The position numbers were made by a program, and so were the translations under genes. From a plasmid, in sequence record NZ_CP072215.1: a stretch of DNA of 64,000 bases. One strand, given 5' to 3'. Within the stretch, counting starts at the first letter, position 1; each line of letters begins with the position of its first letter. Under the pieces are notes generated by a model. The model saw nothing but the letters and a program-made list of their open reading frames with translations. It was not told the DNA's origin and searched no databases. This document shows, piece after piece, positions 14,430-43,045 of the stretch.

Positions 14430-14476
14430 CTTCTTAATATAGTCGATAGCGGCTATCGAAATATGGTTGTTGATGT

Positions 14477-14665: not shown

Positions 14666-14688
14666 TGATATTTATCGCGCCCGGACAG

Positions 14689-15348: not shown

Positions 15349-15369
15349 GAATTGGATTAGTACAGAATA

Positions 15370-22090: not shown

Positions 22091-22489
22091 ATGTTCAACT
22101 TAAATAATGCTAATATGGAAAATTTGATTACACAAATCAACAAAGAGAGATTGGTTAATAGCGACACAGCTCTTATGATGAAGGAATTATACTATTACGT
22201 GCCTTGTGAGTATTGGTATGACAAACAGGATAGGCTACGCACCGATATTGAGGGAAGGAATACCCCGATGTATATGTGCGAGTGCCCGACACTGGCAGCA
22301 TGTATCCAATGGATGATACAGACTCGTGAATATACGTTTCAAACAGAACAAAACGTGGCGGTCTGGCATGTGGTTGTGAGGGCTGGAGATTATGTGTTGT
22401 ATGACTCCGAAAGTAATGCGGACGCTTTTTGTTGTTTGGAAGAAGCATTGGAAAAAGCGGTACAGGAGTGCATGGAGTTATTGTATTAA
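22091..22489 (+). CDS. Hypothetical protein (Cys-rich)
   Basis: 132-aa ORF preceded by a partial copy of the conserved leader-element 3' module. Confidence 0.4.
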   Translation: MFNLNNANMENLITQINKERLVNSDTALMMKELYYYVPCEYWYDKQDRLRTDIEGRNTPMYMCECPTLAACIQWMIQTREYTFQTEQNVAVWHVVVRAGDYVLYDSESNADAFCCLEEALEKAVQECMELLY

Positions 22490-27724: not shown

Positions 27725-28430
27725 ATACTGTGTTTTTGCGTTCACGCAGTATTCTTTCCCACCCTCCCCTTCATCGGAATGACTGTTCTCATTTCCGGTT
27801 TACCCGTAGTCATCCGCTATGCGGCTGATTATGGGCAAACCAGAAAAGAGAAGTTCCAAACGTGGGCGGGATTGCAATGGTCATCATCCGGAGCTTCGGC
27901 ATTGCCGAAACAACCTCCTTCTTCCGTATTGCAGCCCCGTCCTTTTACCGTTTGTCCCGGCAGTCCGTTGCTAACCCGTTCCCCCCTGCCACTTGTGGCA
28001 GGGAGATAGGAATACGGTTTTGCAGGCAAAACCGTATGGCTTGTTTTACTTTCCGTACTGCCCTTTTCCTAGTTTTCTGCCTCCCTTAATGTGCGTTTTT
28101 CATAGCCCCATCTGAGACCCTTTGTTTTTGAACGGCAAATTTATTTCGGTGGATGGATACGAAAGAGTTCCGGTCTTCGCCCTTTGTCCCGAAAAAAATA
28201 ACGCCGGACGGCTTCGCTGTCCCCAACATTTTTTGTCGTCCAAAACTTTTCTTAATCCCTCCTTCCTTATTGTTGTGTGCCGTAAAAAAAAGGCTCATAA
28301 ACTCAGATGGGGCATGAAAGCTCAAAAAAAAAGTCGGCAGAAAGAAAAGGCCATCCCGGAAAGGGGTTTTAAAAAAAGGTCTTTAAATCTAGCTGAAGCA
28401 TAAAATTAGAAGTTTAACAATCCCAAAAAA
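27725..28430 (+). repeat. Conserved structured non-coding leader element, copy C1 (about 700 bp)
   Basis: More than 95% identical to 30790-31485 and 39895-40590. Internal ORFs are not frame-conserved between copies because of indels. Several hairpins show compensatory substitutions between copies. Confidence 0.85.
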
Positions 28431-28439
28431 CAACGAGTT

Positions 28440-28919
28440 ATGTCACGAGTACACTATTTAGAAGGAGATTATGAACAGTTAGTTATTAATGAAACGATAG
28501 ACGGTCTTTTTTCCAGTTATCGTATAGACCGCAATTCATTGCCAAAAGGATTTTTCCTTTATGAGATTAGATGGGATGACAGCTTATCTTCATTGGCAGA
28601 GATTAGCCCCTCTGTGGTGGTGAATCATGCAGGTTCATTCATTACAAAGTCACCCCTTGAATTTGATGCAAACAATAGCATACGGATAACCTATACCAAT
28701 TTTATCGAGTTCTGCCAGTTTGGTGAGTGGGCTTATGAGAAACTGGCTGTATTGGATTGTAATTCCGGTAATGTTGCGGTGATAAGCCCAGACAGGAGAT
28801 TGCAGACCACTGAAGAGATTGAGATTTTTTTGAGTGGGCATTGTGGCTATCATCTGAGTGAGATTAATTGGATGGTGATGAAAGGCGATGTGCTGTTTTT
28901 GAACGAGAACGATTTTTAA
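28440..28919 (+). CDS. Hypothetical protein
   Basis: 159-aa ORF immediately downstream of leader copy C1. Confidence 0.45.
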   Translation: MSRVHYLEGDYEQLVINETIDGLFSSYRIDRNSLPKGFFLYEIRWDDSLSSLAEISPSVVVNHAGSFITKSPLEFDANNSIRITYTNFIEFCQFGEWAYEKLAVLDCNSGNVAVISPDRRLQTTEEIEIFLSGHCGYHLSEINWMVMKGDVLFLNENDF

Positions 28920-28975
28920 TGAGTATAACCGTAACTGCCTCTTGGAATGGGGCAATTACATAAAATATTATAAGT

Positions 28976-29239
28976 ATGAAGTGGATAGATAAGATGGTAG
29001 AACGCATTACCCGAAAAGAAACTGCTTTAAATGACCACTTTTGTGTAAATCGGCATACGGTTGTATGTCAGAGTGGTATGACTGATTATGTTTCTGTAAC
29101 GATTGATAATACCGATGGTTTTGATTTCGATTTTTGGACAAAACAACTTTGTTTTGAGAAGGACTGTAAATATCGCTCGGAGATAAAAGCGGCTTTTGAT
29201 AAAATCTATGGCACAAGGAATATAGAATGTTGTGAATAA
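28976..29239 (+). CDS. Hypothetical Cys-rich protein
   Basis: 87-aa ORF. Confidence 0.4.
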   Translation: MKWIDKMVERITRKETALNDHFCVNRHTVVCQSGMTDYVSVTIDNTDGFDFDFWTKQLCFEKDCKYRSEIKAAFDKIYGTRNIECCE

Positions 29240-29254
29240 TGAAGTCAGAAAAGT

Positions 29255-29980
29255 ATGATACCAAAGGAGATAATGAAACTTTATGAAAAGCTTGCTTTCA
29301 GTCGGGGATATGAAGAAGCCTTTCGGGATTTTTTGGATGTTTGTCTTTACTATTTGTCTGTCGGGATGTTGGCGGAGGATTATCGTAGAGTGGAAAAAAG
29401 ATATAAGCCATATGAAATGGAACTTTTTGTTCAAATGTTTTATAGGGTGTCTGAATATTCGGAAGGATTTTGCGATGTCTTGGGAGATATGTTCATGGAG
29501 TGTGTCAGTCATGGGAATAACGGACAGTTCTTTACCCCGATACACGTTGCTGATTTGATGGCATGTATGGGGGGAAATAGGCTGAAACCTAAACAGTCGG
29601 TCTGTGATTCGTGCTGTGGTTCCGGCAGGATGCTACTTTCCGCTGTAAAAAAATGTGCGGAAGAGAATGATGGAGGAAGGCTTTTTTGTTATGGCTCGGA
29701 TATAGATTTGATTTGTGTAAAGATGACCGTTGTCAATCTGATGATGAATAGCGTACCCGGTGAAGTCGCATGGATGAATACATTGACAATGCAGCATTGG
29801 AGAAGTTATCATATAGATTTACAGCTGATAGCCGGAGTATGGTTGCCTATTTTAAAGATAACGGAAGCAGGTGACACTTCTTTTATTAGGAAACTTGAAA
29901 ATGCAATGGAGGATAATTCTGAATTGAAGAGGTCGATTCAGAGCAACGCAAGGGCTACGCAGCTGACTTTTGATTTTTGA
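29255..29980 (+). CDS. N6-adenine DNA-methyltransferase-like protein lacking the catalytic NPPY/F region (truncated or decoy)
   Basis: HsdM/N6_Mtase-type motifs NGQFFTP and the AdoMet motif I (DSCCGSGRMLL) are present. The protein ends about 90 aa after motif I and no (N/D)PP(F/Y/W) motif is found. Confidence 0.55.
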   Translation: MIPKEIMKLYEKLAFSRGYEEAFRDFLDVCLYYLSVGMLAEDYRRVEKRYKPYEMELFVQMFYRVSEYSEGFCDVLGDMFMECVSHGNNGQFFTPIHVADLMACMGGNRLKPKQSVCDSCCGSGRMLLSAVKKCAEENDGGRLFCYGSDIDLICVKMTVVNLMMNSVPGEVAWMNTLTMQHWRSYHIDLQLIAGVWLPILKITEAGDTSFIRKLENAMEDNSELKRSIQSNARATQLTFDF

Positions 29981-30009
29981 CAAGATAAATATGTAAAAAG
30001 GATTTTGGT

Positions 30010-30333
30010 ATGAAAGCAATAAGAACAAAAGAGGTGAATGAGAACGTCAAAGCGGCGAACAGTTGTTTGCGTAAAGCGAAATGGCAGGCTAAGGAATTGG
30101 CTGTTTTTACAGGTGAAGTAGTGCGTCTGATGGATAAGGAAGGGCATTCTCTACAAGGGTTCTTTAATCGGGTGGAGTTTGTTCTGGTGGACGGCACTAT
30201 TAAATTCCGTGTAGTTATAAATCCTATTCTTGAATGTGAGAACTGTATAATGGCTTCTTGCCATGAAGACTATCTTTATGAGGTGGTCTCGGTGGAAAAG
30301 TTTACCTATAAAAATTATAGGTATCATTTGTAA
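30010..30333 (+). CDS. Hypothetical protein
   Basis: 107-aa ORF. Confidence 0.4.
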   Translation: MKAIRTKEVNENVKAANSCLRKAKWQAKELAVFTGEVVRLMDKEGHSLQGFFNRVEFVLVDGTIKFRVVINPILECENCIMASCHEDYLYEVVSVEKFTYKNYRYHL

Positions 30334-30686
30334 TGATATTGTATTTTAATGATTATAAACTGATTTATATTATAACAATGATGGGCAAAATTAATAATAT
30401 TCCCGTTTTGAATGAAGATGTTATTCGTTTGGTTGTACTCAATGAGGAAATTATTGGGTATATCTATCCACGAAGGACTTCTTATGTGGTGGCATTGGAG
30501 ATAAAGCCGGGACGTACTACCTCTTTGGCTACATCTGTCAATAAACAATGCATGGTTTTGTTGAGTGATAAGGTTCGTTTGGCCACGGAACAGGATTTCG
30601 ATGATTTTCATATATGCTTTGATGGTTTCAGAAATAACACTATGTATTGTTATAATCAGGGAACGGAACCTATATACCTTCAATGA
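30333..30686 (+). CDS. Hypothetical protein
   Basis: 117-aa ORF, start overlapping the upstream stop. Confidence 0.4.
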   Translation: MILYFNDYKLIYIITMMGKINNIPVLNEDVIRLVVLNEEIIGYIYPRRTSYVVALEIKPGRTTSLATSVNKQCMVLLSDKVRLATEQDFDDFHICFDGFRNNTMYCYNQGTEPIYLQ

Positions 30687-30789
30687 AGCACATTCTCCCT
30701 TCTTTTGGATTAGGGAAGGGAGGGTATTTTGCTGTCCGCTACTTTTTGGCAAGCACCCCAAAAAAGTAGCAAAAAACGCTTGGAGTTAC

Positions 30790-31485
30790 TGGTAATCCCA
30801 TTAATTTGCGTTCACGCAGTATTCTTTCCCACCCTCCCCTTCATCGGAATGACTGTTCTCATTCCCGGTTTACCCGTAATCATCCGCTATGCGGCTGATT
30901 ATGGGTAAACCGGAAAAGAGAAGTTCCAAACGTGGGCGGGATTGCAATGGTCATCATCCGGAGCTTCGGCATTGCCGAAACAACCTCCTTCTTCCGTATT
31001 GCAGTCCCTTCCTTTTACCGTTTGTCCCGGCAGTCCGTTGCTAACCCGTTCCCCCCTGTCACTTGTGGCAGGGAGATAGGAGTATGGTTTTGCTTGCAAA
31101 ACCGTATGGCTTGTTTTACTTTCCGTACTGCCCTTTTCCTTGTTTTCTGCCTCCCCTAATGTGCTTTTTTCATAGCTCCATCTGAGAGCCTTTGTTTTTG
31201 AACGGCAAATTTATTTCGGTGGATGGATACGAAAGAGTTCCGGTCTTCGCCCTTTGTACCGAAAAAAATAACGCCGGACGGCTTCGCTGTCCCCAACATT
31301 TTTTGTCGTCCAAAACTTTTCTTAATCCCTCCTTCCTTATTGATGCGTGCCGTAAAAAAAAGGCTCATAAACTCAGATGGGGCATGAAAGCTCAAAAAAA
31401 AAGTCGGCAGAAAGAAAAGGCCATCCCGGAAAGGGGTTTAAAAAAAGGTCTTTAAATCTAGCTGAAGCATAAGTTTAATTTTAAT
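30790..31485 (+). repeat. Conserved structured non-coding leader element, copy C2
   Basis: See copy C1. A perfect stem CCGGTTTACCC...GGGTAAACCGG is present in this copy. Confidence 0.85.
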
Positions 31486-31497
31486 AGATAAAAGACT

Positions 31498-32064
31498 ATG
31501 GCACATCAGAGTAAATATCCTAGTTTAGACAGACAATGGCATAAGATGATGTTTTCTTTCTTTGAGTATCTTCCTATGCAATATCGGCAGGCAACGGAAA
31601 GAGAATGGCAAATTCGTAAGATGATATGGAGTTTTAAGGATGGAAAAGCTTATTTGAATATAGCTTGGATGATAGCGAATAAGTTACATCAAGTTTTTGG
31701 TGATGATGTTAAGAATATTGTTTTTGCTTGTGTTCCGGCTTCTTCCGCTGATAAGAATGAACTTCGTTATAAGGGGTTTGCTTCGGCTGTGTGTAAGTTT
31801 TCAGGTGCTATCAATGCGTATGAACATATACGTGTCAGTGGAGATCGTTTGGCTATTCACGAGAAATTTGACAGCAAGTCGCTTCAAAAAGTACAAGTGA
31901 TAGAATTTGACAAGGACTTTTTTCGGGGTAAGAAAATCTTGGTATTTGACGATATTTTAACAAAAGGGTTTTCGTATGCTCGTTTCGCATGTCAGTTGGA
32001 AAAAATAGGAGGTGAGGTTTTGGGAGGTTTCTTTTTAGGTAAAACAGTTGTCCGTATGTTATAA
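31498..32064 (+). CDS. Phosphoribosyltransferase (type I PRTase) domain protein
   Basis: PRPP-binding loop (KILVFDDILTKG) near the C-terminus. 188 aa. Confidence 0.6.
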   Translation: MAHQSKYPSLDRQWHKMMFSFFEYLPMQYRQATEREWQIRKMIWSFKDGKAYLNIAWMIANKLHQVFGDDVKNIVFACVPASSADKNELRYKGFASAVCKFSGAINAYEHIRVSGDRLAIHEKFDSKSLQKVQVIEFDKDFFRGKKILVFDDILTKGFSYARFACQLEKIGGEVLGGFFLGKTVVRML

Positions 32065-32680
32065 GATGAAAGAAAAAGAGAGTTATATAGAGAAGCAGAA
32101 GGATATCTTTGGAGATACTACTTGGTTCACTTATCGTTATGAGGTGAATGGAATGGTGTATGAAACTTCGGCAGGTTCGTTGGATATATGTAGAAAGGCA
32201 CGTGATAAATGGATGAAAATGATGTCCGTTGCTTTTACCGGTCATAGAACGATACGAACAAATAAATATGCTTTGTCCGTATCGTTGAATGAAGAGGTAC
32301 GTTTCTGCTATGAGAATGGAATCCGTTTTTTCTATATTGGTTGTGCGGTTGGATTTGACATGATGGCTGCTCATACCGTACTTGAACAAAGGAAACAATA
32401 TCCCGATATGGTTTTGGTGGCGGTTGTTCCTTATGTCGGGCAAGATGTGTATTTCAACAAAGAGGACAAACAGAGGTATGCTGATATTTTGCGCCAAGCC
32501 GACAAGGTGGTAGTTCTATCCGAATATTATTATGCCCAATGCTATGCCCACCGTAATGATTACATGATTTCACACGCCTGTAGGCTGATTGCCTATTGGG
32601 ATGGAAAATCTGCCGGAGGAACTTCTTATACGTTTAACAAGGCACAAAAAAAGAAATTGGTGATATACAATCTGTTTTGA
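32048..32680 (+). CDS. SLOG-superfamily (DUF1273/YpsA-like) protein
   Basis: FTGHR motif, a Rossmann-like GxxxG region and a WDGKSAGGT motif typical of DUF1273/SLOG. Overlaps the PRTase gene's 3' end. Confidence 0.55.
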   Translation: MSVCYKMKEKESYIEKQKDIFGDTTWFTYRYEVNGMVYETSAGSLDICRKARDKWMKMMSVAFTGHRTIRTNKYALSVSLNEEVRFCYENGIRFFYIGCAVGFDMMAAHTVLEQRKQYPDMVLVAVVPYVGQDVYFNKEDKQRYADILRQADKVVVLSEYYYAQCYAHRNDYMISHACRLIAYWDGKSAGGTSYTFNKAQKKKLVIYNLF

Positions 32681-32845
32681 TTCAGATTGTATATCGTTGT
32701 TTTCCAGCGGTATGATCAAACGTGGCGATGTCATACTGTCTGGTTGCTGTAAGTGCTAATACTTCCGATGCAAAAGAGAAAGACACAATAAATATGAAAA
32801 GCAATGATAGATGAATTTTACTTAATTGTTTTACCTTTGTAAAAC

Positions 32846-34165
32846 ATTAGTGTCCCATTAAAATTGGGACGAATTAAAAATTAAATAAACTTGGCCCATT
32901 TGGTCCGAATCGTTCTTTGTCATTTTGAAATTTAGTTTTATCAAAGAGGTCTCTCAGATGAGTCTTATCAGTCAATGAGATGCTCAGTATTTGTAACACT
33001 TCATATGTACTTCTGTTCAGTTGCATATCGTGTTGAATGATTGCCACCAAACAGTAAGCGCATATAGCAGCATATATCTGTATTCGAACAGCATTCTCTG
33101 TAGTTCCCCAAAATCTTTTGATTTTAAGGTGCTGCTTGAGCCATTTGAAAAACAGCTCTACCTGCCAGCGATTTTTATAAAGTTCAGCAACTTGAAGCGC
33201 AGATATATGCATCGCATTGGTTATGAATGTAAATTCTCGTTCTTGTTCTTCATCCCAATATTTAACCAATCTAAGTGGCTCTGGATAATATTGTTTAGGA
33301 TAGAATCCTGTCAGAAATACACTTGCGTCTGAAAGCACATTCTTAGGCAGCCTACGTTTCCATTGGATGGATTTGTACCCGAGATTCTTTTTTGCTCTGA
33401 CAACAAAGTAGGCTTCAATTTGATGAATTTTATACAGTATTTTGAAGTTGTTATAACCGCGGTCAAAGATGTAATAAGAGCTTGGTTCATAAGGAATTTC
33501 AATCATAACTTTAGAATCGTGTACGGATGCTTCCGTGATATGAAAGAATGCAGGAATCTGTGTTTCCACATCATATAATGTATGCACTTTGATACCACCT
33601 TTCTTTTTGCGGAATTTTGCCCACCAAAAGACTGAAAGGCACAGGTCAATAGTAGTCGAATCGAAAGCATAAACGTTACCGCCAAGTTTGAAAATATGAT
33701 TAGCACACTTTTGTCGTGCTTCGCTAACCAGGTAGTAAGCATATTCTTCAAAGATGTGATAGTCTCTATCTTGATTTGCTCTTGCCAGCGATGACTTTGA
33801 TACATTTTTACCCATTCCTAAATGATAACATTTGGAATGATGAGCTTCAAGAGCAACTATCAAATCTCGCAGACTTTCACGATTAGAAAGTTGACCAAAC
33901 ATCAAAGCAAGTAGTTGATTCCAGCAGGTGAAGTGCTTCACATATTTATCACCATCATACTTGGTGACTATGCGGTTAAACTTACTTCGATTCAGAAATG
34001 AAGCCAATTGAGCGAAAACGTATTTGTCTTGGAACATATGCCATCGGATTAATCTGATGCAAAGCTACAAATTCAAGTCCGTTCGCTCGGAAAATCGCTG
34101 TAACTAACTAAATTTCAAATATTTCAAAGAACTCTTTTAGATTTTAATGGGACAACAATGTTTGT
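32846..34165 (-). mobile_element. IS4-family insertion sequence, complete with 20-bp imperfect terminal inverted repeats and a 9-bp TTTGTAAAA target duplication
   Basis: IRL CATTAGTGTCCCATTAAAAT at about 32846. IRR is ATTTTAATGGGACAACAATG at about 34146, matching 18 of 20 positions. TTTGTAAAA flanks both ends. Confidence 0.75.
32874..34037 (-). CDS. IS4-family DDE transposase
   Basis: 387-aa ORF filling the IS. DDE-type transposase with the IS4 family YREK-like C-terminus. Confidence 0.85.
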   Translation of the reverse strand: MFQDKYVFAQLASFLNRSKFNRIVTKYDGDKYVKHFTCWNQLLALMFGQLSNRESLRDLIVALEAHHSKCYHLGMGKNVSKSSLARANQDRDYHIFEEYAYYLVSEARQKCANHIFKLGGNVYAFDSTTIDLCLSVFWWAKFRKKKGGIKVHTLYDVETQIPAFFHITEASVHDSKVMIEIPYEPSSYYIFDRGYNNFKILYKIHQIEAYFVVRAKKNLGYKSIQWKRRLPKNVLSDASVFLTGFYPKQYYPEPLRLVKYWDEEQEREFTFITNAMHISALQVAELYKNRWQVELFFKWLKQHLKIKRFWGTTENAVRIQIYAAICAYCLVAIIQHDMQLNRSTYEVLQILSISLTDKTHLRDLFDKTKFQNDKERFGPNGPSLFNF

Positions 34166-34473
34166 AAAAGGTAAAACAATATGCGTTTTTCAGATACAGA
34201 GAACAATATGACCTTTTGCATAGGTGTGTGTTGGTTAGGAACTCCAAATATGGAGTCGTTGCAGAAAATAATGATGAACTTGAATATTATTGATAAGGAT
34301 GGAAACAATGGAAGCTAATGAACTGATGCGATATGCCTATGAATTACTGCAAGGGCATTCGAATGAAGAATGTGCCCGAATATTAAGAGAAGTGGTGGCC
34401 GAGTGTCAGGTGTGTATAAAGAACTGTGAAGAAGGTGTTTTCGAAAATATGCTAAAGTAATAACAACAAGAAT

Positions 34474-34923
34474 ATGGAAATTACTCATAAAAATCAAGGA
34501 GAACTTGACTCAACCATGCTCCCATTCGTGATGAGAGAGCTGGTAGAACTGGTCATGAAGAAAAAGGCATTGCCTTTAGGCGATGCACTGTATTATATAT
34601 ATTCTTCCAAGTTGTATAAATCTTTGCTGGATAAGAGTACCAAGTTATGGTATTCAAGTACATTGTCGCTTTATGAAACATTGGAGAAGGAAAAAACAGA
34701 AGAAAAACGACGGTATAACGGTGACACGAAGATCCTGCTTTTCAAGATGTTCTGCATTGAGAATTATAGGGAGGAAAAGAAACAAAGTGCGGAAGAAACC
34801 TTGTTGTTGTTTTCGGACTATGGGGTTTTTGATTTTTTGGATGAGACTTTTGAAATGCTTCATACCCAAGACCCCGAATATATATTAGATACTATAACGA
34901 CTTATATCAATAAAAGAAAATGA
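34474..34923 (+). CDS. DUF3791-like protein
   Basis: 149 aa, translationally coupled (ATGA) to a DUF3990-like gene. This pair commonly occurs together. Confidence 0.5.
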   Translation: MEITHKNQGELDSTMLPFVMRELVELVMKKKALPLGDALYYIYSSKLYKSLLDKSTKLWYSSTLSLYETLEKEKTEEKRRYNGDTKILLFKMFCIENYREEKKQSAEETLLLFSDYGVFDFLDETFEMLHTQDPEYILDTITTYINKRK

Positions 34924-35402
34924 GACTATTTCATGGATCTACAGTTACCGTGAAACGCCCTAATATACAGAAAGGACGGAAGGCTACGGACTTTGGGAAG
35001 GGATTTTATACGACAACCAACTTTGAACAAGCAAAAAAATGGGCTTTGTTGAAGAAGAACAGGGAACAGAGCGAAAAAGCAATCGTCTCTGTTTATGAAG
35101 TTCCCGATGATATTCTTGATAGGGAATATCCGGTTCTTCGGTTTATGGGTGCAACAAAAGAATGGCTGGAGTTTGTTGTCAACAACCGCAGAGGAAGAGA
35201 AAACGGTGACTATGACCTAATAATGGGGCCTGTCGCAAATGACCAGTTATATGCGACAATTCGGCTTTATGAACAGAGAGTTGTTACGGCTGAAGCCGCT
35301 ATTGAGATGCTGAAAGCGCATAAGTTGTTCAATCAGCTTTCATTTCATACGGTAACAGTCGCTTTGTTGTTGAAGTTTGTTGAATCAATTGAAGTGGGGT
35401 AA
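34920..35402 (+). CDS. DUF3990-like protein
   Basis: 160 aa with the MRLFHGST N-terminus typical of DUF3990. Confidence 0.5.
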   Translation: MRLFHGSTVTVKRPNIQKGRKATDFGKGFYTTTNFEQAKKWALLKKNREQSEKAIVSVYEVPDDILDREYPVLRFMGATKEWLEFVVNNRRGRENGDYDLIMGPVANDQLYATIRLYEQRVVTAEAAIEMLKAHKLFNQLSFHTVTVALLLKFVESIEVG

Positions 35403-35460
35403 AGAATATGTGAAGTGAAAATAGGGGGAAGTTTATCCCCCAATGGTAAGGTTGTTTTTT

Positions 35461-36270
35461 GCGTCCACTTAGTTTTTTCCCACCCACCCTTTCAGCGGAG
35501 TGACTGCCCGGCAGTCTGTTGCTTACCCATATGTCCTAGCCTTTTAGGGCTGTAGATAGGTAGTTGGATATTTCGCTGCCAAATCGGCAGTCCGCTTCAA
35601 TCGTTTGCTTGCTTTTCTCCGAGTGGAGCCTTTCTGCTTTTCCGGTGGTGTAATCTTCTTTTATTGGAAACAGGTGTAGTGGCTGTATGCCTGTGTGGTT
35701 ATGTTCTCCCGCAGAATCCGCAAGTCAGTTCTTCCGTTGCAGCTTTTCATTTTATCGTGCAGTCACTTTTTTCGATACGTGGAATATGATATGCTTCATT
35801 CTTCGGCTTCATTTTTTTAAAAGGAATTGCAGATGTTTCTTCCGGTGTGTCGATAGGCGGCTGACCATCTTTTCGGGATGTGCCATGCTTGCTGTCTAAC
35901 CGGTTGTTTTTTGCATCCTTTCCAAACCTGTTACTGATTTTCAAGTTTTGTCTTTTTCATATCATTTTTTAGGGAAGTCAAATCATTTTCCGTTGCAAAT
36001 ATAGATTGTTGCTAACCCCTTTTACGGGGATAAGGGGACGATTCACAAACACCACGTTGTTATTCGTCTGAAATCTTCCTTTTTTTGCCTTGCACAAAAA
36101 GCGTATTTAACCCGAATTATTCGTTGCCATCTTCACCAATAAAAAAGTTACAAATCTTCCTTTTTCCGGCCAGCATAAAAAGAGTATTTATATCTTTTTT
36201 CATGGTGTCCCCCAAAGCCAACAATCAGTTATTGCACTGTAAAATTGATTAATTAACTTCTAAAAAATCA
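35461..36270 (+). repeat. Leader-element family, variant A (direct repeat of 38495-39460 with an internal deletion)
   Basis: More than 95% identical to the B copy over about 800 bp. The 5' end (TTTCCCACCCACCCTTTCAGCGGAGTGACTG) is homologous to the start of the C copies. Confidence 0.85.
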
Positions 36271-36610
36271 GAGATATGAAAAAGATTGAAAATTCATTCG
36301 CAGTAACAGGCAGGATTTGTAGGGATGCAGAAATCCATTTATTCGAAATAGTAAAGGTTGCACACTTCTCTATTGTGGTCAGTCGCATAGGCAAGATAAA
36401 TGAAGAAAAAACATTTGTTTCCTCTGTTATGAAAGTTGAAGCCTAGAGTAAGATGGAAGACCGCTATGCTTTTTGGATACTGCAAAAAGATGTACTGATT
36501 ACCGTTGAAGGCTACTTTAAGCCGGAAGAATGGACGGATTCTAAAAGTGGGGAGAAACGTAACCGCATTGTGATGGTAGCTACTAAGTTCTACCCGACTC
36601 CGGAAAAATA
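36270..36610 (+). pseudogene. ssb pseudogene (in-frame stop)
   Basis: Aligns with the 39460-39858 SSB gene. Reads MKKIENSFAVTGRICRDAEIHLFEIVKVAHFSIVVSRIGKINEEKTFVSSVMKVEA and then TAG. Confidence 0.65.
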
Positions 36611-36780
36611 AGAACCCCCGGACTAAAAAGAAAAAGCAATCAAACGATTGAAGCGGCACAAGGTCGCTTCAATCGTTTGCTAATGCGGCAGAAGATTATA
36701 AAAAAAGTGTTTCTTAATTTGGTGATTTTCAGATTTATCGGTATTTTTGTATCAAAAATGATACCTAAATATGTTTTTCT

Positions 36781-37119
36781 ATGAAAAGATTATATGATAC
36801 ATATACAATATACGAATTTTCAGATGAATGTATTGTAAAGGAAATCTGCAAGAGAGTTAAGTCTATAAGACTTAGCTGCTGTTTTTCCCAGCAAGAATTT
36901 GCGGATAAGGCAGGAGTATCTATCGTTACTATTAAGAGAATAGAATCTTGTAAAGTAAGTGATATTGCCCTAAGTACATTGCTTAAGATTTTGCGTATAA
37001 GTGGAACTCTTGAAGGCGTTGTCGGTTTGGTTCCGGAACTTCCAGACTCCCCTTTCCTAATCAATGAAAAAACAGGTAAAAGAATACAAAGAATTAACGG
37101 TAAACGTAAGATGGTATGA
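36781..37119 (+). CDS. hipB: XRE/HipB-type HTH antitoxin
   Basis: HTH motif (QQEFADKAGVSIVTIKRIE). Stop overlaps the hipA start. Confidence 0.6.
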   Translation: MKRLYDTYTIYEFSDECIVKEICKRVKSIRLSCCFSQQEFADKAGVSIVTIKRIESCKVSDIALSTLLKILRISGTLEGVVGLVPELPDSPFLINEKTGKRIQRINGKRKMV

Positions 37120-38393
37120 AGAAAGAGCCGATTATAGTGAATGTATATCTGTGGGGGACTTGCATTGGCAAATTGAATTGGGACTTTGAAAAGCATTGTT
37201 CTGTATTCCAATTTACGGATGAATATAGGAAACAAGATTATGATATATGCCCTTCCACACACCCTAAGAGAACCCCTTTGTTTGCGTCTTTCTATGGGAA
37301 TAAAGATAAATTATATCAAGGGCTTCCGGAATTTCTTGCAGATGCGCTTCCTGACAAATGGGGGGCTTCCCTATTTGACCAATGGCTCACGGATAATAAT
37401 ATAAAGGTTACGGAATCATTGCCTCTATTGAAGCTCTCTTATATTGGCAAGAGGGCTATGGGAGCATTGGAATTTGAACCGGAATTTAATGATGATGCCA
37501 TCCATGAGTCAGTAAATATGTCATCATTGGCAACTTTGGCTTCTAAAATATATAATGATCGAGATGCTGCTGTCATATCACCGGAGGATAGCCTCACGAT
37601 GAAAAAGTTGATATATCTTGGAACTTCTGCCGGTGGCATGCGCCCGAAGGCAGTGATTGCCTATAATCTCGAAACGGAAGAGTTTCGTTCCGGCCAGGTG
37701 GATTTGCCTGAAAATTTTAAGCAGTATATCATCAAATTTAAAGAAGCAGATGACTCTCCTACCACAGAGATAGAAATGGTATATAGCGAAATGGCAAAGG
37801 CGGCGGGAATCAACATGATGCCATGCTTCCTGAAAGAAATTGATGGAAGAAATCATTTCGTAACGGAAAGATTTGATCGTAAGAATGGAGAAAAGCTCTT
37901 TAGTCAGACCCTTGCGGCCATTATGCCGGGTGCAGATGATTATATGAAGCTGTGTTGGATAGCAGAGACTCTGAAACTTCCCCAGGAAGACAAAGATCAG
38001 ATATTTATCAGAATGGTATTTAATTATGTCGCAGGTATATCCGATGATCATAATAAGAACATATCGTTTATCATGGATAAGGCAGGGGTATGGCGTTTAT
38101 CACCTGCATATGATGTAATGTTCACGGCAAATACATGGGAAAATTCTTCAGCACACATTCATTCGATGGGCGTGATGGGCAAAAGGTCTGCCTTGACTAC
38201 AAGTGATTTCGTCAACTTTGCCGAGGATTTTGTAGAGGAGCCCGAAAAGAAGATATTACAGGTGTTCGATGCTGTAAGCAAATTTCAATCGTTATGCGCC
38301 ACGTATGGCATAGATAAGGCTATATTTGATAAAATCCAACATGTATTGGATGGATTGGTCACTGATGATTTGGATTTGCTGCAATTAACTTAA
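37116..38393 (+). CDS. hipA: HipA-family serine/threonine kinase toxin
   Basis: HipA N- and C-domains, with the catalytic loop DDHNKN. Confidence 0.8.
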   Translation: MKKEPIIVNVYLWGTCIGKLNWDFEKHCSVFQFTDEYRKQDYDICPSTHPKRTPLFASFYGNKDKLYQGLPEFLADALPDKWGASLFDQWLTDNNIKVTESLPLLKLSYIGKRAMGALEFEPEFNDDAIHESVNMSSLATLASKIYNDRDAAVISPEDSLTMKKLIYLGTSAGGMRPKAVIAYNLETEEFRSGQVDLPENFKQYIIKFKEADDSPTTEIEMVYSEMAKAAGINMMPCFLKEIDGRNHFVTERFDRKNGEKLFSQTLAAIMPGADDYMKLCWIAETLKLPQEDKDQIFIRMVFNYVAGISDDHNKNISFIMDKAGVWRLSPAYDVMFTANTWENSSAHIHSMGVMGKRSALTTSDFVNFAEDFVEEPEKKILQVFDAVSKFQSLCATYGIDKAIFDKIQHVLDGLVTDDLDLLQLT

Positions 38394-38494
38394 AGAACAG
38401 TAGATGGTGATAGTTGCTCCAGTCTTTTCTGGAACGGCTTTCTTTTCTTTTGAGATCTTTATACCCCTATTTGTTATTTTGGAGAAAGTCACAT

Positions 38495-39459
38495 GTTTCC
38501 CACCCACCCTTTCAGCGGAGTGACTGTCCCCGTTTCAGGATTTCTCATAGTCACTCGCAGGCTCCGTGATTGTGTGAAATCCAGGAATGGGGAAGGCAAA
38601 GGAGAGAGGCATATCCGGTCTGCTTTCGGAGCTTCGGCCACATCGAGACAACCTCTTTCCGGCGGCTATGCCACTCTCCTTTTATTTGCCCGGCAGTCTG
38701 TTGCTTACCCATATGCCCCAGCCTTTTAGGGCTGTATATAGGTAGTCGGATATTTCGCCGCTAAATCGGCAGTCCGCTTCAATCGTTTGCTTGCTTTTCT
38801 CCGAGTGGATGCCTTTCTGTTTTTCCGGTTGTATAATCTTCTTTTTCCGGAAACAGTTGTAGTGGCTGTATGCCTGTATGGTTATGTTCTCCCCGCAGAA
38901 TCCGCAAGTCTGTTCTTCCGTTGCAGCCTTTCATTTTATCGTGCAGTCACTTTTTTCGATACGTGGAATATTGTATGCTTCATTCTTCGGCTTCATTTTT
39001 TTAAAAGGAATTGCAGAGGTTTCTTCCGGTGTGTCGATAGGCGGCTGACCATATTTTCGGAATGTGCCATGCTTGCTGTCTGACCGGTTGTTTTTTGCAT
39101 CCTTTCCAAACCTGTTGCTGATTTTCAAGTTTTGTCTTTTTCATATCATTTTTTAGGGAAGTCAAATCATTTTCCGTTGCAAATATAGATTGTTGCTAAC
39201 CCCTTTTACGGGGATAAGGGGACGATTCACAAACACCACGTTGTTATTCGTCTGAAATCTTCCTTTTTTTGCCTTGCATAAAAAGCGTATTTAACCCGAA
39301 TTATTTGCTGCCATCTTCACCAATAAAAAAGTTACAAATCTTCCTTTTTCCGGCCAGCATAAAAAGAGTATTTATATCTTTTTTCATGGTGTCCCCCAAA
39401 GCCAACAATCAGTTATTGCACTGTAAAATTGATTAATTAACTTCTAAAAAATCAGAGAT
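38495..39459 (+). repeat. Leader-element family, variant B (full-length relative of variant A)
   Basis: Contains an extra roughly 170-bp internal segment homologous to the C-copy core (GGAGCTTCGGCC..CGAGACAACCTC). Confidence 0.85.
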
Positions 39460-39858
39460 ATGAAAAAGATTGAAAATTCATTCGCAGTAACAGGTTTTAT
39501 CGGTAAGGATGCAGAAATCCGTAGTTTTGAAACAGCAAGCGTAGCACGCTTTTCTATCGCGGTCAGCCGTGCAGACAAGACAGGTGAAGAAACCTCTTAT
39601 GTTTCCGCTTTCATGGGGATTGAAGCCTGGAGAAAGAATGAAGCACTGGATTCCTTCGATGTATTGAAAAAAGGTGAGCTGATAACCGTTGAAGGCTACT
39701 TTAAGCCGGAAGAATGGACGGATTCTAAAAGTGGGGAGAAGCGTAACCGCATTGTGATGGTAGCCACCAAGTTTTATCCGGCTCCGGAAAAAGAAGAAGA
39801 AAAACCGGATCAGCCTAAACAGAAGGCTGTCTCTAAAAAGAAAAAAGCAAGCAAATGA
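39460..39858 (+). CDS. ssb: Single-stranded DNA-binding protein (OB-fold, short form with Lys-rich tail)
   Basis: OB-fold SSB-like core (ITVEGYFKPEEWTDSKSGEKRNRIVMVATKF). Confidence 0.7.
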   Translation: MKKIENSFAVTGFIGKDAEIRSFETASVARFSIAVSRADKTGEETSYVSAFMGIEAWRKNEALDSFDVLKKGELITVEGYFKPEEWTDSKSGEKRNRIVMVATKFYPAPEKEEEKPDQPKQKAVSKKKKASK

Positions 39859-39892
39859 TTGAAGCGGCCTAGTGCCGCTTTTTTTTGCTACA
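39858..39892 (+). terminator. Rho-independent terminator after ssb
   Basis: GC stem (AAGCGGCC-TAG-TGCCGCTT) followed by a run of 8 T. Confidence 0.6.
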
Positions 39893-39894
39893 TA

Positions 39895-40590
39895 TCCGAG
39901 AGTGTTTTTGCGTTCACGCAGTATTCTTCCCCACCCTCCCCTTCATCGGAATGACTGTTCTCATTCCCGGTTTGCCCGTAGTCATCCGCTATGCGGCTGA
40001 TTATGGGCAAACCAGAAAAGAGAAGTTCCAAACGTGGGCGGGATTGCAATGGTCATCATCCGGAGCTTCGGCATTGCCGAAACAACCTCCTTCTTCCGTA
40101 TTGCAGTTCCTTCCTTTTACCGTTTGTCCCGGCAGTCCGTTGCTAACCCGTTCCCCCCCTGTCACTTGTGGCAGGGAGATAGGAATACGGTTTTGCAAGC
40201 AAAACCGTATGGTTTGTTTTACTTTCCGTACTGCCCTTTTCCTTGTTTTCTGCCTCCCCTAATGTGCTTTTTTCATAGCTCCATCTGAGATCCTTTGTTT
40301 TTGAACGGCAAATTTATTTCGGTGGATGGATACGAAAGAGTTCCGGTCTTCGCCCCTTTGTCCCGAAAAAAATAACGCCGGACGGCTTCGCTGTCCCCAA
40401 CATTTTTTGTCGTCCAAAACTTTTCTTAATCCCTCCTTCCTTATTGTTGTGTGCCGTAAAAAAAAGGCTCATAAACTCAGATGGGGCATGAAAGCTCAAA
40501 AAAAAAGTCGGCAGAAAGAAAAGGCCATCCCGGAAAGGGGTTTTAAAAAAAGGTCTTTAAATCTAGCTGAAGCATAAAATTAGAAGTTTA
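39895..40590 (+). repeat. Conserved structured non-coding leader element, copy C3
   Basis: See copy C1. Confidence 0.85.
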
Positions 40591-40612
40591 ACAAACTAAG
40601 TAGCAGAAGTAT

Positions 40613-41212: not shown

Positions 41213-42460
41213 ATGAAACCCAAGACAAAATTACAAATGGAAATCGTGAATGGGAGCAGGAAGTTAGCTCCCGTTTCAGAGGCTCAAAAGCGTTATGCCT
41301 ATAAACATTGCTTTGTGCATTATTTCAAGCGTGATGCAAAGGGGAATTGCTTTTGTTTGGATTGTGGGCATACATGGCGGGATAAGGAAGATAAGAAAAA
41401 CTGTAAATGTCCTCATTGCGGTATGAACCTGAAATTGGAGAATAGCAGGAAAAGGACGGCTGTATATAAAGAATATTTTTGTGTGATTACTACATACAAG
41501 CAATATCAAGTTATCCGTTTTTTTATGGTGGACTGCCGGCTGAAAAAAGGGTCTCCGGCTAATTACTTTATAATTGAGGCGGTACAGTGTTGGATGAATA
41601 AAGAGGGCAAGACAGAAACGCTGTCTTTGCTGCGGGGCATGTCTATATTTTATTACGATGCATGGATATATGGAAGTTCTTTGGAATTGCGTAAGCGGAA
41701 TGTGCATCATGACCGTATTTATGATATTTGCCCGGCAGTTATCTATCCGAGAATGAAAGTGATACCCGAACTTACGAGGAATGGATTTAAGGGTGCCTTT
41801 TATGATATTTGTCCGAGTTCCTTCTTTATGACATTATTAACTGATAATCGGATGGAGATATTATATAAGGCAGGGCAAATGAATTTGTTCTTGAGATTTT
41901 TAGAGAGAAAATACGGTATAGATAAGTATTGGACGTATGTAAAAATCTGTTTAAGACATGACTATGTGATACATGATGCGGACTTGTGGCTGGACTATGT
42001 GGATATGCTGATAGAAAATAAATTGGATGCGAGAAATCCTCATTATTTGTGTCCGTTGAATGTAGAAGAAGCGCATGATTGGGTGATGGGGAAATGTAAG
42101 AAAAAATATTCTGAAAAGGATGAAAAAGACTATATTGCTGCCAAATCACGTTTCTTTAATCTTTCGTTTGCGGATGGAAATATTATGGTTCGGGTATTGG
42201 AAAGCCTTTCGGACTTTTACAAAGAGGGAAAGTTGCTGCATCATTGTGTATTCAGCAACGCCTATTATAAGAGAGAAGATTCGTTGATAATGTCGGCAAC
42301 GGTGGATGGAAGGCGCATGGAAACGGTGGAGTTTTCACTTAGCAGGATGGAGGTGTGCCAGTGTCGTGGAAAGTCTAACCAATTATCAGCCTATCATGAC
42401 CGGATTCTGAATTTGGTACGGGATAATATACCGTTGATAAGGGAAAGGATGGTAGTGTAA
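41213..42460 (+). CDS. PcfJ-like protein
   Basis: 415 aa with an N-terminal Cys4 zinc-ribbon-like motif (CLDCGHTW...CPHCG) and conserved PcfJ-family C-terminal residues. Confidence 0.65.
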   Translation: MKPKTKLQMEIVNGSRKLAPVSEAQKRYAYKHCFVHYFKRDAKGNCFCLDCGHTWRDKEDKKNCKCPHCGMNLKLENSRKRTAVYKEYFCVITTYKQYQVIRFFMVDCRLKKGSPANYFIIEAVQCWMNKEGKTETLSLLRGMSIFYYDAWIYGSSLELRKRNVHHDRIYDICPAVIYPRMKVIPELTRNGFKGAFYDICPSSFFMTLLTDNRMEILYKAGQMNLFLRFLERKYGIDKYWTYVKICLRHDYVIHDADLWLDYVDMLIENKLDARNPHYLCPLNVEEAHDWVMGKCKKKYSEKDEKDYIAAKSRFFNLSFADGNIMVRVLESLSDFYKEGKLLHHCVFSNAYYKREDSLIMSATVDGRRMETVEFSLSRMEVCQCRGKSNQLSAYHDRILNLVRDNIPLIRERMVV

Positions 42461-42559
42461 TGAATAGCCCACACATCTAAATGTGTGGGAGTTCTTTTTT
42501 GGAAGACGCCCAAAAAAGAACCCCAAAAAACGTTGTCGCTACACATCGTTACGCTCGGA

Positions 42560-43045
42560 TTATTTGCTTGTCGGCTTTAGTTTGCCGATACATTTTTCCA
42601 TGTCGGGGGACAATAGGAAAGAAGCCGTCTTTTTCTGCTGCACCCCTGAGTGTGGCTGGACGATGGCATACCTGCATTTTAATATCTTGCCGATAACTTC
42701 CGTACTGTCACGGTGCAGGTACATGGCTTTCATGGCATCCGTTGCTTTCAGGCTTTTTTCGGCTTCCATATAGGCGGAAAAGGACGGTTTGAATAAGGCA
42801 CGGGGACTTTCCGCTTTCTGTATGACAGCGGATAATTGTGCGCTTTTGTTGTTCAGGTAGCACAGGCTGTCCGATACGGTGACGTCTTCTGTTTCCAACA
42901 CTTCCAGTAGTTCGAACTTTAAATCCGTCCAGGTGCCGTGAGAATCTGTCTGAACCCATTCCGCAATGGCCTTCTCATAGCCGGGTTTGCTGCATGAGGA
43001 AAAGGCAATGAGCAGCATACAAAAAAATAAATGCTTGATATTCAT
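42560..43045 (-). CDS. Hypothetical lipoprotein
   Basis: Signal peptide plus lipobox (FSSCSK). Confidence 0.45.
   Translation of the reverse strand: MNIKHLFFCMLLIAFSSCSKPGYEKAIAEWVQTDSHGTWTDLKFELLEVLETEDVTVSDSLCYLNNKSAQLSAVIQKAESPRALFKPSFSAYMEAEKSLKATDAMKAMYLHRDSTEVIGKILKCRYAIVQPHSGVQQKKTASFLLSPDMEKCIGKLKPTSK

Follow-up and report, generated by a model that had tools for sequence, protein, structure and literature searches.

Structure of the locus and of the repeated elements

The window, a 64,000-nt stretch of plasmid record NZ_CP072215.1, is 100% identical to plasmid NZ_CP059857.1 and is a large conjugative plasmid of gut Bacteroidales (Bacteroides, Phocaeicola and Parabacteroides); the ICE setting assumed in an initial annotation was therefore wrong. 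It carries a series of plus-strand gene cassettes, several of which are preceded by long repeated elements. A toprim-domain gene adjoins the cassette region, and serine 'recombinase family' genes and transposases are annotated in the region. A repeat search of the 64-kb window placed direct repeats at 27735-28420, 30805-31490 and 39907-40594, bearing out the three direct ~700-bp copies of the initial annotation. These copies, C1 to C3, are ~680 nt each and 94-97% identical, and their three-way alignment (aligned core ~27736-28415 in C1, ~30806-31480 in C2 and ~39907-40590 in C3) has a mean column identity of 94% with the flanks counted in.

C1 (27736-28415), which was delimited from the repeats, the alignment and the annotation of the identical plasmid, lies 5′ of an LPD28/hypothetical/N6-MTase cassette with its first ATG at 28440. 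It consists of a hairpin-rich accessory 5′ half (27736-28047), in which a self reverse-complement match marks a ~100-nt palindrome at 27761-27872; a core formed by a ~317-nt imperfect palindrome (28048-28364), defined by the consensus structure and covariation counts and proposed below to act from the minus strand as a single-strand promoter hairpin; and a second conserved hairpin plus leader on the plus strand (28350-28415; GTCGGCAG ... AAAGGTCTTTAAATCTAGCTGAAGCATAA), where the median distance from the end of the motif to the first ATG is 32 nt. C2 (30806-31480; palindrome 31117-31443) lies 5′ of a PRTase-SLOG cassette (ATG 31498) and C3 (39907-40590; palindrome 40220-40537) lies 5′ of a 63-aa ORF/PcfK/PcfJ cassette (ATG 40613). 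Terminator-like hairpins on the plus strand end the preceding cassette just 5′ of C2 (30692-30725) and follow the D2 ssb gene just 5′ of C3 (39861-39881).

Two diverged copies, D1 and D2, have 5′ modules in common with the C type and share with it the motif GGCAGTCyGTTGCTwACCC (5 matches in the window versus 0.06 expected). The existence of this sub-family was thus predicted correctly, but its extents were not, because the real palindromes (35591-36657 and 38746-39899) take in the downstream ssb gene. D1 (35461-36657) has a 5′-module remnant (35461-35590) followed by a 1,067-nt imperfect palindrome with ssb (36276-36611) as its right arm. D2 (38494-39899) has 5′ modules at 38494-38745 followed by a 1,154-nt imperfect palindrome, whose left arm mirrors ssb in antisense but is degenerate and whose right arm is intact ssb (39460-39858). 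What had been called a partial copy of the 3′ module is a complete stand-alone module of hairpin and leader (21725-22100), located 5′ of a 132-aa ORF (22091-22489). Like D1 and D2, this module is directly 5′ of a plus-strand cassette. Of 103 assessable 3′ modules, 41 had a recognisable 5′ half in front of them.

The elements are non-coding, as originally described. The 1-bp indels separating the C copies are real (alignment columns 306, 506 and 694), and the small ORFs within the elements use TTG or GTG starts, are broken by indels and differ completely between lineages, so that no frame is conserved across diverged copies. For this reason, we rejected a protein-coding gene as an explanation of the conservation.

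The elements form a conserved hairpin of one DNA strand

The small hairpins and their compensatory and wobble changes were as initially noted in the C1-C3 alignment: CCGGTTTACCC/GGGTAAACCGG pairs perfectly in C2, has an A:T pair replaced by G:C in C3 and contains mismatches in C1, and CTGCCAC/GTGGCAG and ACGGTTTTGC/GCAAAACCGT have T:G pairs in C2. At a larger scale, a self reverse-complement search of the 64-kb window showed that long imperfect palindromes are almost confined to the elements. An imperfect palindrome of ~315 nt makes up the conserved core, and in the D type the palindrome reaches ~1,100-1,150 nt, with intact ssb as one arm. DNA folds of the elements gave z-scores of −10.5 to −11.3; the plus strand also folded well (z = −6.7), and folding energy did not clearly separate the strands.

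Covariation, which the initial annotation had suggested checking, supported the hairpin in an alignment of 25 representatives (minimum pairwise identity 0.56) chosen from plasmids and from over 100 contigs of human-gut origin. Among these representatives, 83.3% of cells at paired positions were paired, compared with at most 52.8% when partners were slid, and double changes affected 17 pairs and 83 cells, whereas the slid controls had 3-12 such pairs and 8-30 such cells. In 500 shuffles the observed covariation values were never attained. For the D type, alignment of each arm to its own partner scored 87, 56 and 38, versus 13-24 across clades and 10-13 for shuffled sequences, a pattern indicating that D-type arms co-evolve within lineages. 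We conclude that the element is a long, evolutionarily conserved hairpin of one DNA strand.

One of three roles originally listed for the elements, with none chosen, was a plus-strand structured RNA, that is, a long folded 5′ leader or intercistronic RNA governing stability, processing or translation of the cassette mRNAs. The good plus-strand folding, the second hairpin and A-rich motif, which stop 32 nt (median) short of the ATG and show high conservation on the plus strand, and plus-strand G:U in some pairs (for example 313:371) would all suit such an RNA. However, wobble pairs were distributed 78 versus 64 between the strands, and this symmetry argues against selection on one RNA strand. 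Further, a D-type transcript would pair the entire ssb reading frame with a ~600-nt antisense leader. Rfam 15 covariance models gave no gathering-score match in the whole window (matches at E<5 were sub-threshold, mostly to microRNA families), which supports the original view that this is no described RNA family. Although the elements resemble the large structured ncRNAs of Rfam in being long, conserved, hairpin-rich and non-coding, they differ from them in having no gathering-score match, no strand-biased wobble and no plus-strand promoter box. Taken with the lack of a plus-strand −7 box upstream of or inside the elements, the terminator-like hairpins before C2 and C3 and the conserved minus-strand box described below, for which an RNA leader gives no account, these results make a plus-strand RNA unlikely.

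Each element contains a single minus-strand −7 box

Inspection of the elements revealed exactly one Bacteroides −7 box (TAnnTTTG) in each, on the minus strand every time, and no plus-strand −7 box was found upstream of or inside them. The boxes lie at 28136-28143 in C1 (TAAATTTG), 31206-31213 in C2, 40309-40316 in C3, 35996-36003 in D1 and 39180-39187 in D2 (both TATATTTG), and 21835-21842 in the stand-alone module (the variant AACCTTTG). Palindromes of related plasmids likewise have one minus-strand box, except for modules with the AACCTTTG variant and the L071 D type, in which an exact box was not found. In metagenomic data, 79 of 80 unique modules keep the box while its free positions vary (TAAATTTG, TACCTTTG, AACCTTTG). 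The mirrored plus-strand site is degenerate, and differently so in each lineage (AGTTATTG, GATAATTG, TATTGAAG), whereas the minus-strand box is intact. A −33 element is weak, being TTTC in C types and absent from D types and some variants.

The arm carrying the box corresponds to the would-be non-template strand of the minus-strand hairpin, and RNA polymerase positioned there would read into the cassette. In all seven D-type minus-strand folds having an exact box, the box pairs opposite a point 41-47 nt 5′ of the ssb ATG (44 nt in both D1 and D2); in most C-type minus-strand folds that point is ~130-170 nt 5′ of the first ATG. The TAnnT portion is free of pairing both in the consensus structure and in the fold of D2, where TATAT occupies a 5-nt internal loop, and in the left arm of C1 TAAATT is in an internal loop with pairing from TG on. 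Nevertheless, the bubble is not universal, as roughly half of the minimum-energy folds of the C type have some of the box paired.

The same box is a perfect double-strand consensus that would fire leftward in duplex DNA, which raises the possibility of an ordinary minus-strand promoter whose antisense or non-coding transcript would cross the 5′ half or the end of the upstream cassette, with the palindromes as leftovers of inverted duplication. Strong folding of the G-rich minus strand of the 5′ half and small minus-strand ORFs called there by PGAP point the same way. Yet some modules stand alone without a 5′ half, the transcript of the 21725-22100 copy would only be antisense to the upstream gene (21332-21742), the minus-strand ORFs are not kept between lineages, and a D-type transcript would be a frame-broken pseudo-ssb that has lost its ATG in L067 and L068. 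Lineage-specific arm co-evolution, covariation of the hairpin and expression of the promoterless cassettes would also go unexplained. We consider a double-strand promoter distinctly improbable.

Element-led cassettes lack their own promoter box and carry genes typical of leading regions

In the stretch from element to ATG, all seven element-led first genes were without a plus-strand box, whereas 17 of 31 other operon-first genes had one (Fisher p = 0.009). The initial claim that an element precedes every accessory cassette held for several cassettes but not for MazEF, HU and HipBA, which have ordinary plus-strand promoters of their own and no element. The cargo behind the elements resembles that of plasmid leading regions (compared with PMC11541004) and includes ssb, an orphan MTase, RadC, LPD28 and DUF2958, with an AcrIIA9-family gene in a relative. 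The elements thus stand upstream of probable establishment or anti-defence genes without their own promoter box.

The same module type fronts at least six cargo families, and modules group by plasmid lineage rather than by cargo: comparing C2 with the L068 module that leads a PRTase cassette gave 0.68, as against 0.90 for two modules within L068. These patterns, together with the serine recombinase genes of the region and the highly conserved direct motifs, which could be operators, might be expected of a recombination or cassette-exchange site, or of an operator array for a plasmid regulator, maintained as duplex DNA. However, repeat homogenisation is expected whatever the function, as in Frpo1/Frpo2 of F (PMC9849209), homologous exchange needs no 315-1,150-nt palindromes with compensatory changes, integron-type integrase and attC features are absent, and the strand, position and conservation of the box are left unexplained. 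Because modules cluster by lineage and not by cargo, recombination, another of the three roles originally listed, is at most a by-product, and a duplex recombination or operator function appears very improbable.

Integron attC sites share with the elements imperfect palindromes that fold in ssDNA, lie between cassettes and are reachable during conjugation. They differ in being 60-140 nt long, in serving the IntI tyrosine recombinase and in having no promoter role, whereas the elements are 315-1,150 nt and each has a promoter box. An integron attC/cassette array was rejected: nothing in the region is annotated as an integron integrase, and the 315-1,150-nt palindromes sit upstream of the cassettes.

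A candidate single-strand DNA promoter

The remaining role, an Frpo/ssi-like promoter, fits best the combination of a conserved long hairpin, a single canonical −7 box that is directed at the cassette only when the minus strand forms the hairpin, cassettes without boxes of their own and terminator-like hairpins before C2 and C3. With moderate confidence, we propose that the element is such a promoter, working on single-stranded DNA and suited to the sigma factor of Bacteroides. Conjugation would bring the minus strand of the window, the template strand of the cassettes, into the recipient as ssDNA, where the long imperfect palindrome would fold. The cassette-distal arm (left, in the minus-strand reading) would supply the non-template promoter strand with its TAnnTTTG −7 box, TAnnT usually lying in an internal loop between flanking duplexes, and host RNA polymerase could bind the box and use the opposite arm as template. 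Transcription would then exit the base of the hairpin into the cassette before complementary strand synthesis, reading ssb, LPD28 plus MTase, PRTase-SLOG, RadC/JAB, DUF2958 or PcfK/J; in the D type, the hairpin would simply be lengthened over the entire ssb gene. Once the plasmid is double-stranded, loss of the hairpin would leave the box directed away from the cassette and turn expression off. Most likely, then, these would be single-strand promoters active only during transfer that switch on ssb and probable anti-defence genes early, and, if so, hairpin promoters of this kind were not previously described for this phylum.

Both the activity in this model and the identity of the transferred strand are ones we infer. 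The cassettes and the core relaxase operon point the same way, an arrangement suggesting an F-like geometry in which the transferred strand would be the cassettes' template. However, the conserved oriT core adjoins mobC in the order inverted repeat, inverted repeat, conserved box, mobC, which could be equally compatible with the mob genes leading; the search that located this core yielded neither a nic site nor its polarity. CTnERL Hfr-type transfer is said to point to leading mob genes; with that polarity the plus (sense) strand would be transferred and the single-strand promoter model would fail. The cassettes are not adjacent to oriT, and the polarity of the model would bring in ~20 kb of tra genes first.

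A single-strand initiation site might instead serve purely to prime the complementary strand, through the plasmid toprim protein or RNA polymerase, and not be an mRNA promoter. Hairpin-rich modules recur along the plasmid beside the toprim-domain gene, the 5′ half otherwise has no explanation, and priming of DNA synthesis is a further activity of Frpo (Masai and Arai 1997, cited in PMC11541004). Pure priming explains neither the fixed place of the modules upstream of the cassettes (~44 nt from the ATG in D types, mostly ~130-170 nt in C types) nor the missing promoters of the cassettes, and priming by RNA polymerase at the box would require the same strand polarity as the promoter model; it thus seems to have little chance of being the whole function. 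The single-strand promoter model, for its part, accounts neither for the 5′ half of ~310 nt nor for how very strongly the unpaired motifs of the plus strand (AAAGGCTCA..AACTCAGATGGGG and AAAGGTCT..ATCTAGCTGAAG.ATAA) are conserved.

Comparison with known single-strand promoters

In F, the Frpo1 and Frpo2 repeats are 92% identical and each fronts its own cluster of leading genes, with ssb in one of the two (PMC9849209). Folding of the Frpo/ssi hairpin re-creates a host promoter directed into the genes, and conversion to dsDNA is thought to switch it off (PMC9849209, PMC11541004, PMC13478746). Like the elements, Frpo1, Frpo2 and ssp2 (F, ColIb-P9) are non-coding imperfect hairpins of a few hundred nt that occur as high-identity repeats before establishment clusters including ssb. 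The likeness is one of layout. The elements differ in their promoter logic, which would be that of the primary sigma factor of Bacteroides (−7 TAnnTTTG) and not −35/−10. In addition, the 5′ portion of the −7 box mostly lies in a loop and not in duplex, the elements possess a further 5′ half of ~310 nt and another hairpin within the leader, the D type spans the whole ssb gene, and the cassettes lie away from oriT. The published single-strand promoter searches consulted here used the sigma-70 consensus and contain no mention of Bacteroid*. As described in PMC6294495 and PMC8708921, the single-strand promoter of the pLS20 family of Bacillus plasmids is similar in concept, expressing establishment genes from incoming ssDNA in a non-enterobacterial host, although the phylum and sigma factor are different.

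Organization of the repeated elements

A repeat search recovered the three direct copies of the initial annotation as co-linear blocks at 27735-28420, 30805-31490 and 39907-40594, together with a second repeat pair at 35505-36007 and 38687-39191. We refer to the three near-identical elements of ~680 nt, each 5′ of a plus-strand cassette, as C1 (27736-28415), C2 (30806-31480) and C3 (39907-40590), and to the diverged elements as D1 (35461-36657) and D2 (38494-39899). A three-way alignment of the C copies (94% identical with flanks) contained the 1-bp indels that had been described between them and, as stated, small hairpins carrying A:T to G:C and T:G changes; the 5′ modules that the D sub-family had been said to share with the C copies were indeed common to both. 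Five matches to the motif GGCAGTCyGTTGCTwACCC are present in the window, compared with 0.06 expected.

When the C elements were compared with their own reverse complements using nhmmer, the 3′ half proved to be an imperfect palindrome of ~317 nt, and a smaller palindrome of ~100 nt was found within the 5′ half. The D elements are far larger palindromes of 1,067 and 1,154 nt, in which the right arm is an intact ssb with its leader and the left arm is a frame-broken antisense image of the same sequence. Long palindromes were almost confined to the elements in a scan of the whole window. Elsewhere in the window there are three other imperfect palindromes, all of them short (65-160 nt, E 1e-5 to 1e-6), at 6743-6900, 42428-42580 and 60429-60540.

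The conserved core, consisting of the 3′ palindrome, a second small hairpin and an A-rich leader, stands alone at 21725-22100 and in several relatives, and a recognisable 5′ half was present beside only 41 of the 103 assessable copies of this module. Two similar plus-strand motifs, AAAGGCTCA..AACTCAGATGGGG.ATGA and AAAGGTCT..ATCTAGCTGAAG.ATAA, are extremely conserved and may be protein-binding sites or translation signals. At the 5′ end of the element is a C-rich tract, TTTCCCACCCTCCCCTTCA (window 27750-27775), found at the same place in C2, C3 and D2; its minus-strand reading, TGAAGGGGAGGGTGGGAAA, has three G-runs. The C-rich 5′ module of D1 directly abuts the CGGCAGTC module, showing the ~190 nt that separate these modules in the C elements to be an insert inside a GACTG/CAGTC stem.

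The earlier view that the elements are non-coding and belong to no described RNA family held. The small PGAP-called ORFs inside them share nothing between lineages, and we therefore rejected small-protein coding. No Rfam 15 match reached the gathering score anywhere in the window; a permissive Rfam search of 20-42 kb returned only sub-threshold matches, mostly to microRNA, and the elements were absent from both Rfam and the literature searched.

The elements reside on a conjugative plasmid

The 76-kb Bacteroides zhangwenhongii plasmid NZ_CP059857.1 is 100% identical to the window, plasmids of B. cellulosilyticus, B. thetaiotaomicron, Parabacteroides distasonis, Phocaeicola dorei and P. vulgatus are 92-100% identical, and ~75% identical versions occur on plasmids of B. 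fragilis, P. vulgatus and B. uniformis. Because these near-identical sequences are plasmids, we assign the window to a conjugative plasmid and not to an ICE, the host initially assumed. One relative comes from the same collection as pMMCAT, and the repeats are not mentioned in the pMMCAT preprint.

The core transfer module is ordered relaxase, mobC, an oriT region of ~400 bp, ParA/DUF3408 and a Bacteroidetes-type tra operon, with ArdC-like, ssb and coupling-protein genes at the 3′ end of the latter. By annotation, the tra operon occupies about 44 to 63.6 kb on the minus strand; all element-led cassettes lie at 18 to 42.5 kb on the plus strand, where they face tra and run in the same direction as relaxase and mobC. 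A seventh element copy lies outside the window, 5′ of a DUF2958 cassette. Between the PRTase-SLOG and DUF3791/DUF3990 cassettes is a minus-strand IS4-family transposase gene (32874-34037) with its own -7 promoter box at 34067. A block at ~11700-16700, containing a second relaxase and MobC (15.4-16.7 kb), two AraC regulators, an MBL hydrolase and a "radical SAM mobile pair", is missing from the same place in P. dorei CP126057; it probably represents a mobilisable element that inserted here and carries an oriT of its own. The second relaxase/MobC was rejected as marking the relevant oriT, since it lies within an insertion that a close relative lacks.

The long hairpin is under selection

Among the matches listed, a metagenome scan with the core motif gave more than 100 human-gut contigs, which yielded at least 80 unique modules. 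These fell into at least 19 clusters when grouped at 93% identity, the lowest pairwise identity being 0.56. We conclude that the elements are real, non-coding and widespread in human-gut Bacteroidales plasmids. A scan of GTDB representative genomes with a 17-base motif produced mostly chance matches; the five real ones (L013, L022, L029, L036 and L039) are short contigs that end within the element and have been assigned to bins of unrelated taxa (Lactobacillus, Alphaproteobacteria, Oscillospiraceae). The element repeats break assemblies, and plasmid contigs are mis-binned in MAGs.

RNAalifold analysis of 18 sequences gave the same long hairpin on either strand, extending over ~210 nt on the plus strand and to ~280 nt on the minus strand, with compensatory double changes at 14 and 12 pairs, respectively. 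Covariation was then evaluated for a 79-pair structure in 25 representatives, with slid pairing partners and 500 shuffles as controls. The fraction of cells paired was 83.3% (at most 52.8% for slid partners), 17 pairs had double changes (3-12 for slid partners), 83 cells had double changes (8-30 for slid partners), and none of the 500 shuffles matched the observed values. The excess over both controls shows that the long hairpin is under selection.

Which strand folds was a separate question, for which folding of both strands had been recommended. Both were strongly structured; the minus strand was only slightly better in most cases, which was not decisive, and energy was dropped as a basis for choosing. 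Wobble counts were dropped as well, being symmetric: 78 cells were plus-strand G:U and 64 would be minus-strand G:U, and among pairs predicted on both strands the counts were 4 and 7. This symmetry argues against a rival explanation, a structured plus-strand RNA leader, because an RNA folding from one strand should show a clear wobble bias.

Each element carries one minus-strand promoter box

It is established that the Bacteroides primary sigma factor recognizes a -7 element, TAnnTTTG, and a weaker -33 element, TTTG, as reportedly described by Bayley et al. in 2000. An exact -7 box lies 12-75 nt 5′ of the start codon in most ordinary operons of this plasmid (MazEF, HU, HipBA, ParA, IS4 transposase), and the box is therefore a good predictor here. 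Exactly one exact box was found per element, on the minus strand every time: TAAATTTG at 28143, 31213 and 40316 in C1, C2 and C3, and TATATTTG at 36003 and 39187 in D1 and D2. The -33 element is weak. Palindromes of related plasmids likewise have one minus-strand box, except for a D type without an exact box (L071) and modules with the variant AACCTTTG. Among the metagenomic matches listed, 79 of 80 unique modules kept the box and the two free positions varied (TAAATTTG in 42, TACCTTTG in 22 and AACCTTTG in 15).

On the plus strand, none of the 7 element-led first genes had a box between element and ATG, whereas one preceded 17 of the 31 other genes that open an operon (Fisher p=0.009). Strong terminator-like hairpins close the preceding cassettes at 30692-30725 (before C2) and 39861-39881 (before C3), so that the cassettes look like separate transcription units. 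A plus-strand RNA leader would thus be without a canonical promoter box and, at C2 and C3, would lie downstream of terminator-like hairpins; in the D type it would also sequester the whole ssb ORF.

Hairpin geometry and the D-type arms

In the folded minus strand, the box lies on the 3′ arm, which would have the non-template role for a polymerase running from the hairpin loop to its base; the polymerase would then enter the 5′ flank, the template of the cassette. Minimum-energy DNA folds placed the box opposite a point 41-47 nt 5′ of the ssb ATG in 7 of 7 D-type folds with an exact box, spanning three lineages whose left arms are only ~50% identical, and opposite a point about 130-170 nt 5′ of the first ATG in most C types. 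A pure priming site, which may coexist with a promoter role as it does in Frpo, the single-strand DNA promoter of F, fits part of these data but leaves the fixed distance to start codons unexplained. TAnnT was unpaired in the consensus structure, the D2 fold and about half of the individual C folds, and the TTG and downstream bases were paired. A bubble in the hairpin may keep the TAnnT part of the -7 element pre-melted.

The D2 minus strand folds as a single 1,150-nt hairpin (-233 kcal/mol; z = -10.5 for the central 611 nt). Whereas the minus-strand box is perfect, the mirrored plus-strand site is degenerate, each lineage having its own changes (AGTTATTG, GATAATTG, TATTGAAG). In the D type the putative promoter is therefore left in the pseudo-arm alone, and the other arm alone retains the reading frame. 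This split makes sense only if the arms act jointly as a hairpin. Right arms aligned to their own left arms with scores of 87, 56 and 38, compared with 13-24 across clades and 10-13 for shuffled sequence, which indicates that the arms co-evolve. We considered the left arm as a single old, decaying ssb pseudogene; a multiple-alignment test was ambiguous, and the idea was dropped because the pairwise scores point to lineage-specific complementarity. A conventional duplex promoter on the minus strand, producing an antisense RNA, would leave both the covariation and the arm co-evolution unexplained and has no conserved product.

We conclude that the elements are most likely Frpo-like single-strand promoters tailored to the Bacteroides sigma factor. 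F likewise has two repeats, Frpo1 and Frpo2 (92% identical, 5 kb apart), located 5′ of different leading clusters, one with ssb, and they are turned off by conversion to double-stranded DNA (PMC9849209). The single-strand promoter papers searched use the sigma-70 consensus and make no mention of Bacteroid*. The elements most likely belong to a known kind, the single-strand promoter, with an unusual gene-spanning form for ssb, in which dividing promoter and coding sequence between the arms would restrict expression to single-stranded DNA. The complete reading is more tentative, although it may well be correct: a Bacteroidales family serving its own sigma factor, with TAnnT pre-melted in a bubble and, for ssb, a whole gene as one arm of a ~1.1-kb hairpin, such that the promoter is confined to the pseudo-arm and the ORF to its partner, and the gene is hence expressed only from single-stranded DNA.

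Transferred strand and oriT

The single-strand promoter model would require transfer of the window minus strand, and the transferred strand is its weakest step. In F, R388, RP4 and IncI1 the relaxase operon enters last; the same order here would mean that the minus strand is transferred, and the co-orientation of cassettes and relaxase fits that geometry. Conversely, Hfr-type transfer of CTnERL reportedly suggests that in CTnDOT-like elements the mob side may enter first, and the reviews consulted state no direction. The model would fail if the plus strand were transferred, in which case the conserved box on the minus strand would need to function in the duplex.

Four diverged Bacteroides plasmids share an oriT core adjoining mobC, which starts in the window at ~63970-64000 and continues past its end (20160-20250 in NZ_CP059857.1). 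Its parts are a conserved box, a pair of inverted repeats and the promoter of mobC. The box, GAGTGAAACGAAC, comes first, followed by the inverted repeat CAGCTCGGCTG, in which one plasmid has a compensatory G:C to A:T change, the long inverted repeat GCAAGGT..TTTTTGTA/TACAAAAA..ACCTTGC, and the mobC -7 box. The layout is readable in either polarity, a weak ATCCAG motif resembles the RP4 nic core, and comparison of the four plasmids revealed neither nic nor polarity decisively.

Cargo of the element-led cassettes

The first genes behind 126 modules belong to a few families: RadC-like JAB (31), LPD28 (22), DUF2958 (20), PRTase with SLOG (19), a 145-aa unknown (14) and a 68-aa membrane protein preceding PcfK/PcfJ (11); in the D type, ssb is always directly downstream. 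Plasmid leading regions are reported to carry the same kind of cargo: genes for SSB, methyltransferases, toxin-antitoxin systems and anti-defence functions, in the orientation that lets them be transcribed from the transferred strand (PMC11541004). In P. dorei CP126057 (L070 22551-24209), a gene annotated as Cas9 inhibitor AcrIIA9 family lies behind a C-type module where the window has PcfK/PcfJ, supporting an anti-defence role for element-led cargo.

Modules resemble those of their own lineage more than modules with the same cargo elsewhere (for example 0.90 within plasmid L068 compared with 0.68 for PRTase-leading modules across clades, in alignments covering L067, L068 and L072). At the level of sequence comparison, this pattern points to concerted evolution, or to conserved modules behind which the cargo has been swapped. 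Clustering by plasmid lineage and not by cargo fits cassette exchange through homologous recombination at the repeats, which probably occurs, though seemingly as a side effect of the repeats and not as their role.

The plasmids studied here, which are related to the pervasive pMMCAT-type plasmids, rank among the mobile elements most widely shared in the human gut, and the elements would bear on how Bacteroidales elements pass recipient defences within minutes of entry. On the more tentative complete reading, they would act as an "entry-only" switch that is hard-wired, and would be the first single-strand promoter class beyond the sigma-70 -35/-10 framework. Single-strand promoters of this kind would take the Frpo concept into a phylum whose promoter grammar differs and would predict the transferred strand of this transfer system. 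As a sequence-defined class they would mark the true early ("establishment") regulon, within which LPD28, DUF2958, PRTase-SLOG and the 145-aa family would be candidate anti-defence genes, and they would offer a compact part for entry-only expression in Bacteroides engineering.

A gene-free gap of ~880 nt lies 5′ of the RadC/JAB gene (window 19650-20460), with neither a TAnnTTTG box nor a palindrome. It holds a sub-threshold match to Flavo-1 RNA (RF01705) at 20191-20274 on the minus strand (26.9 bits, where the gathering score is 42; E 0.064), and relatives have a C-type module 5′ of JAB in its place.
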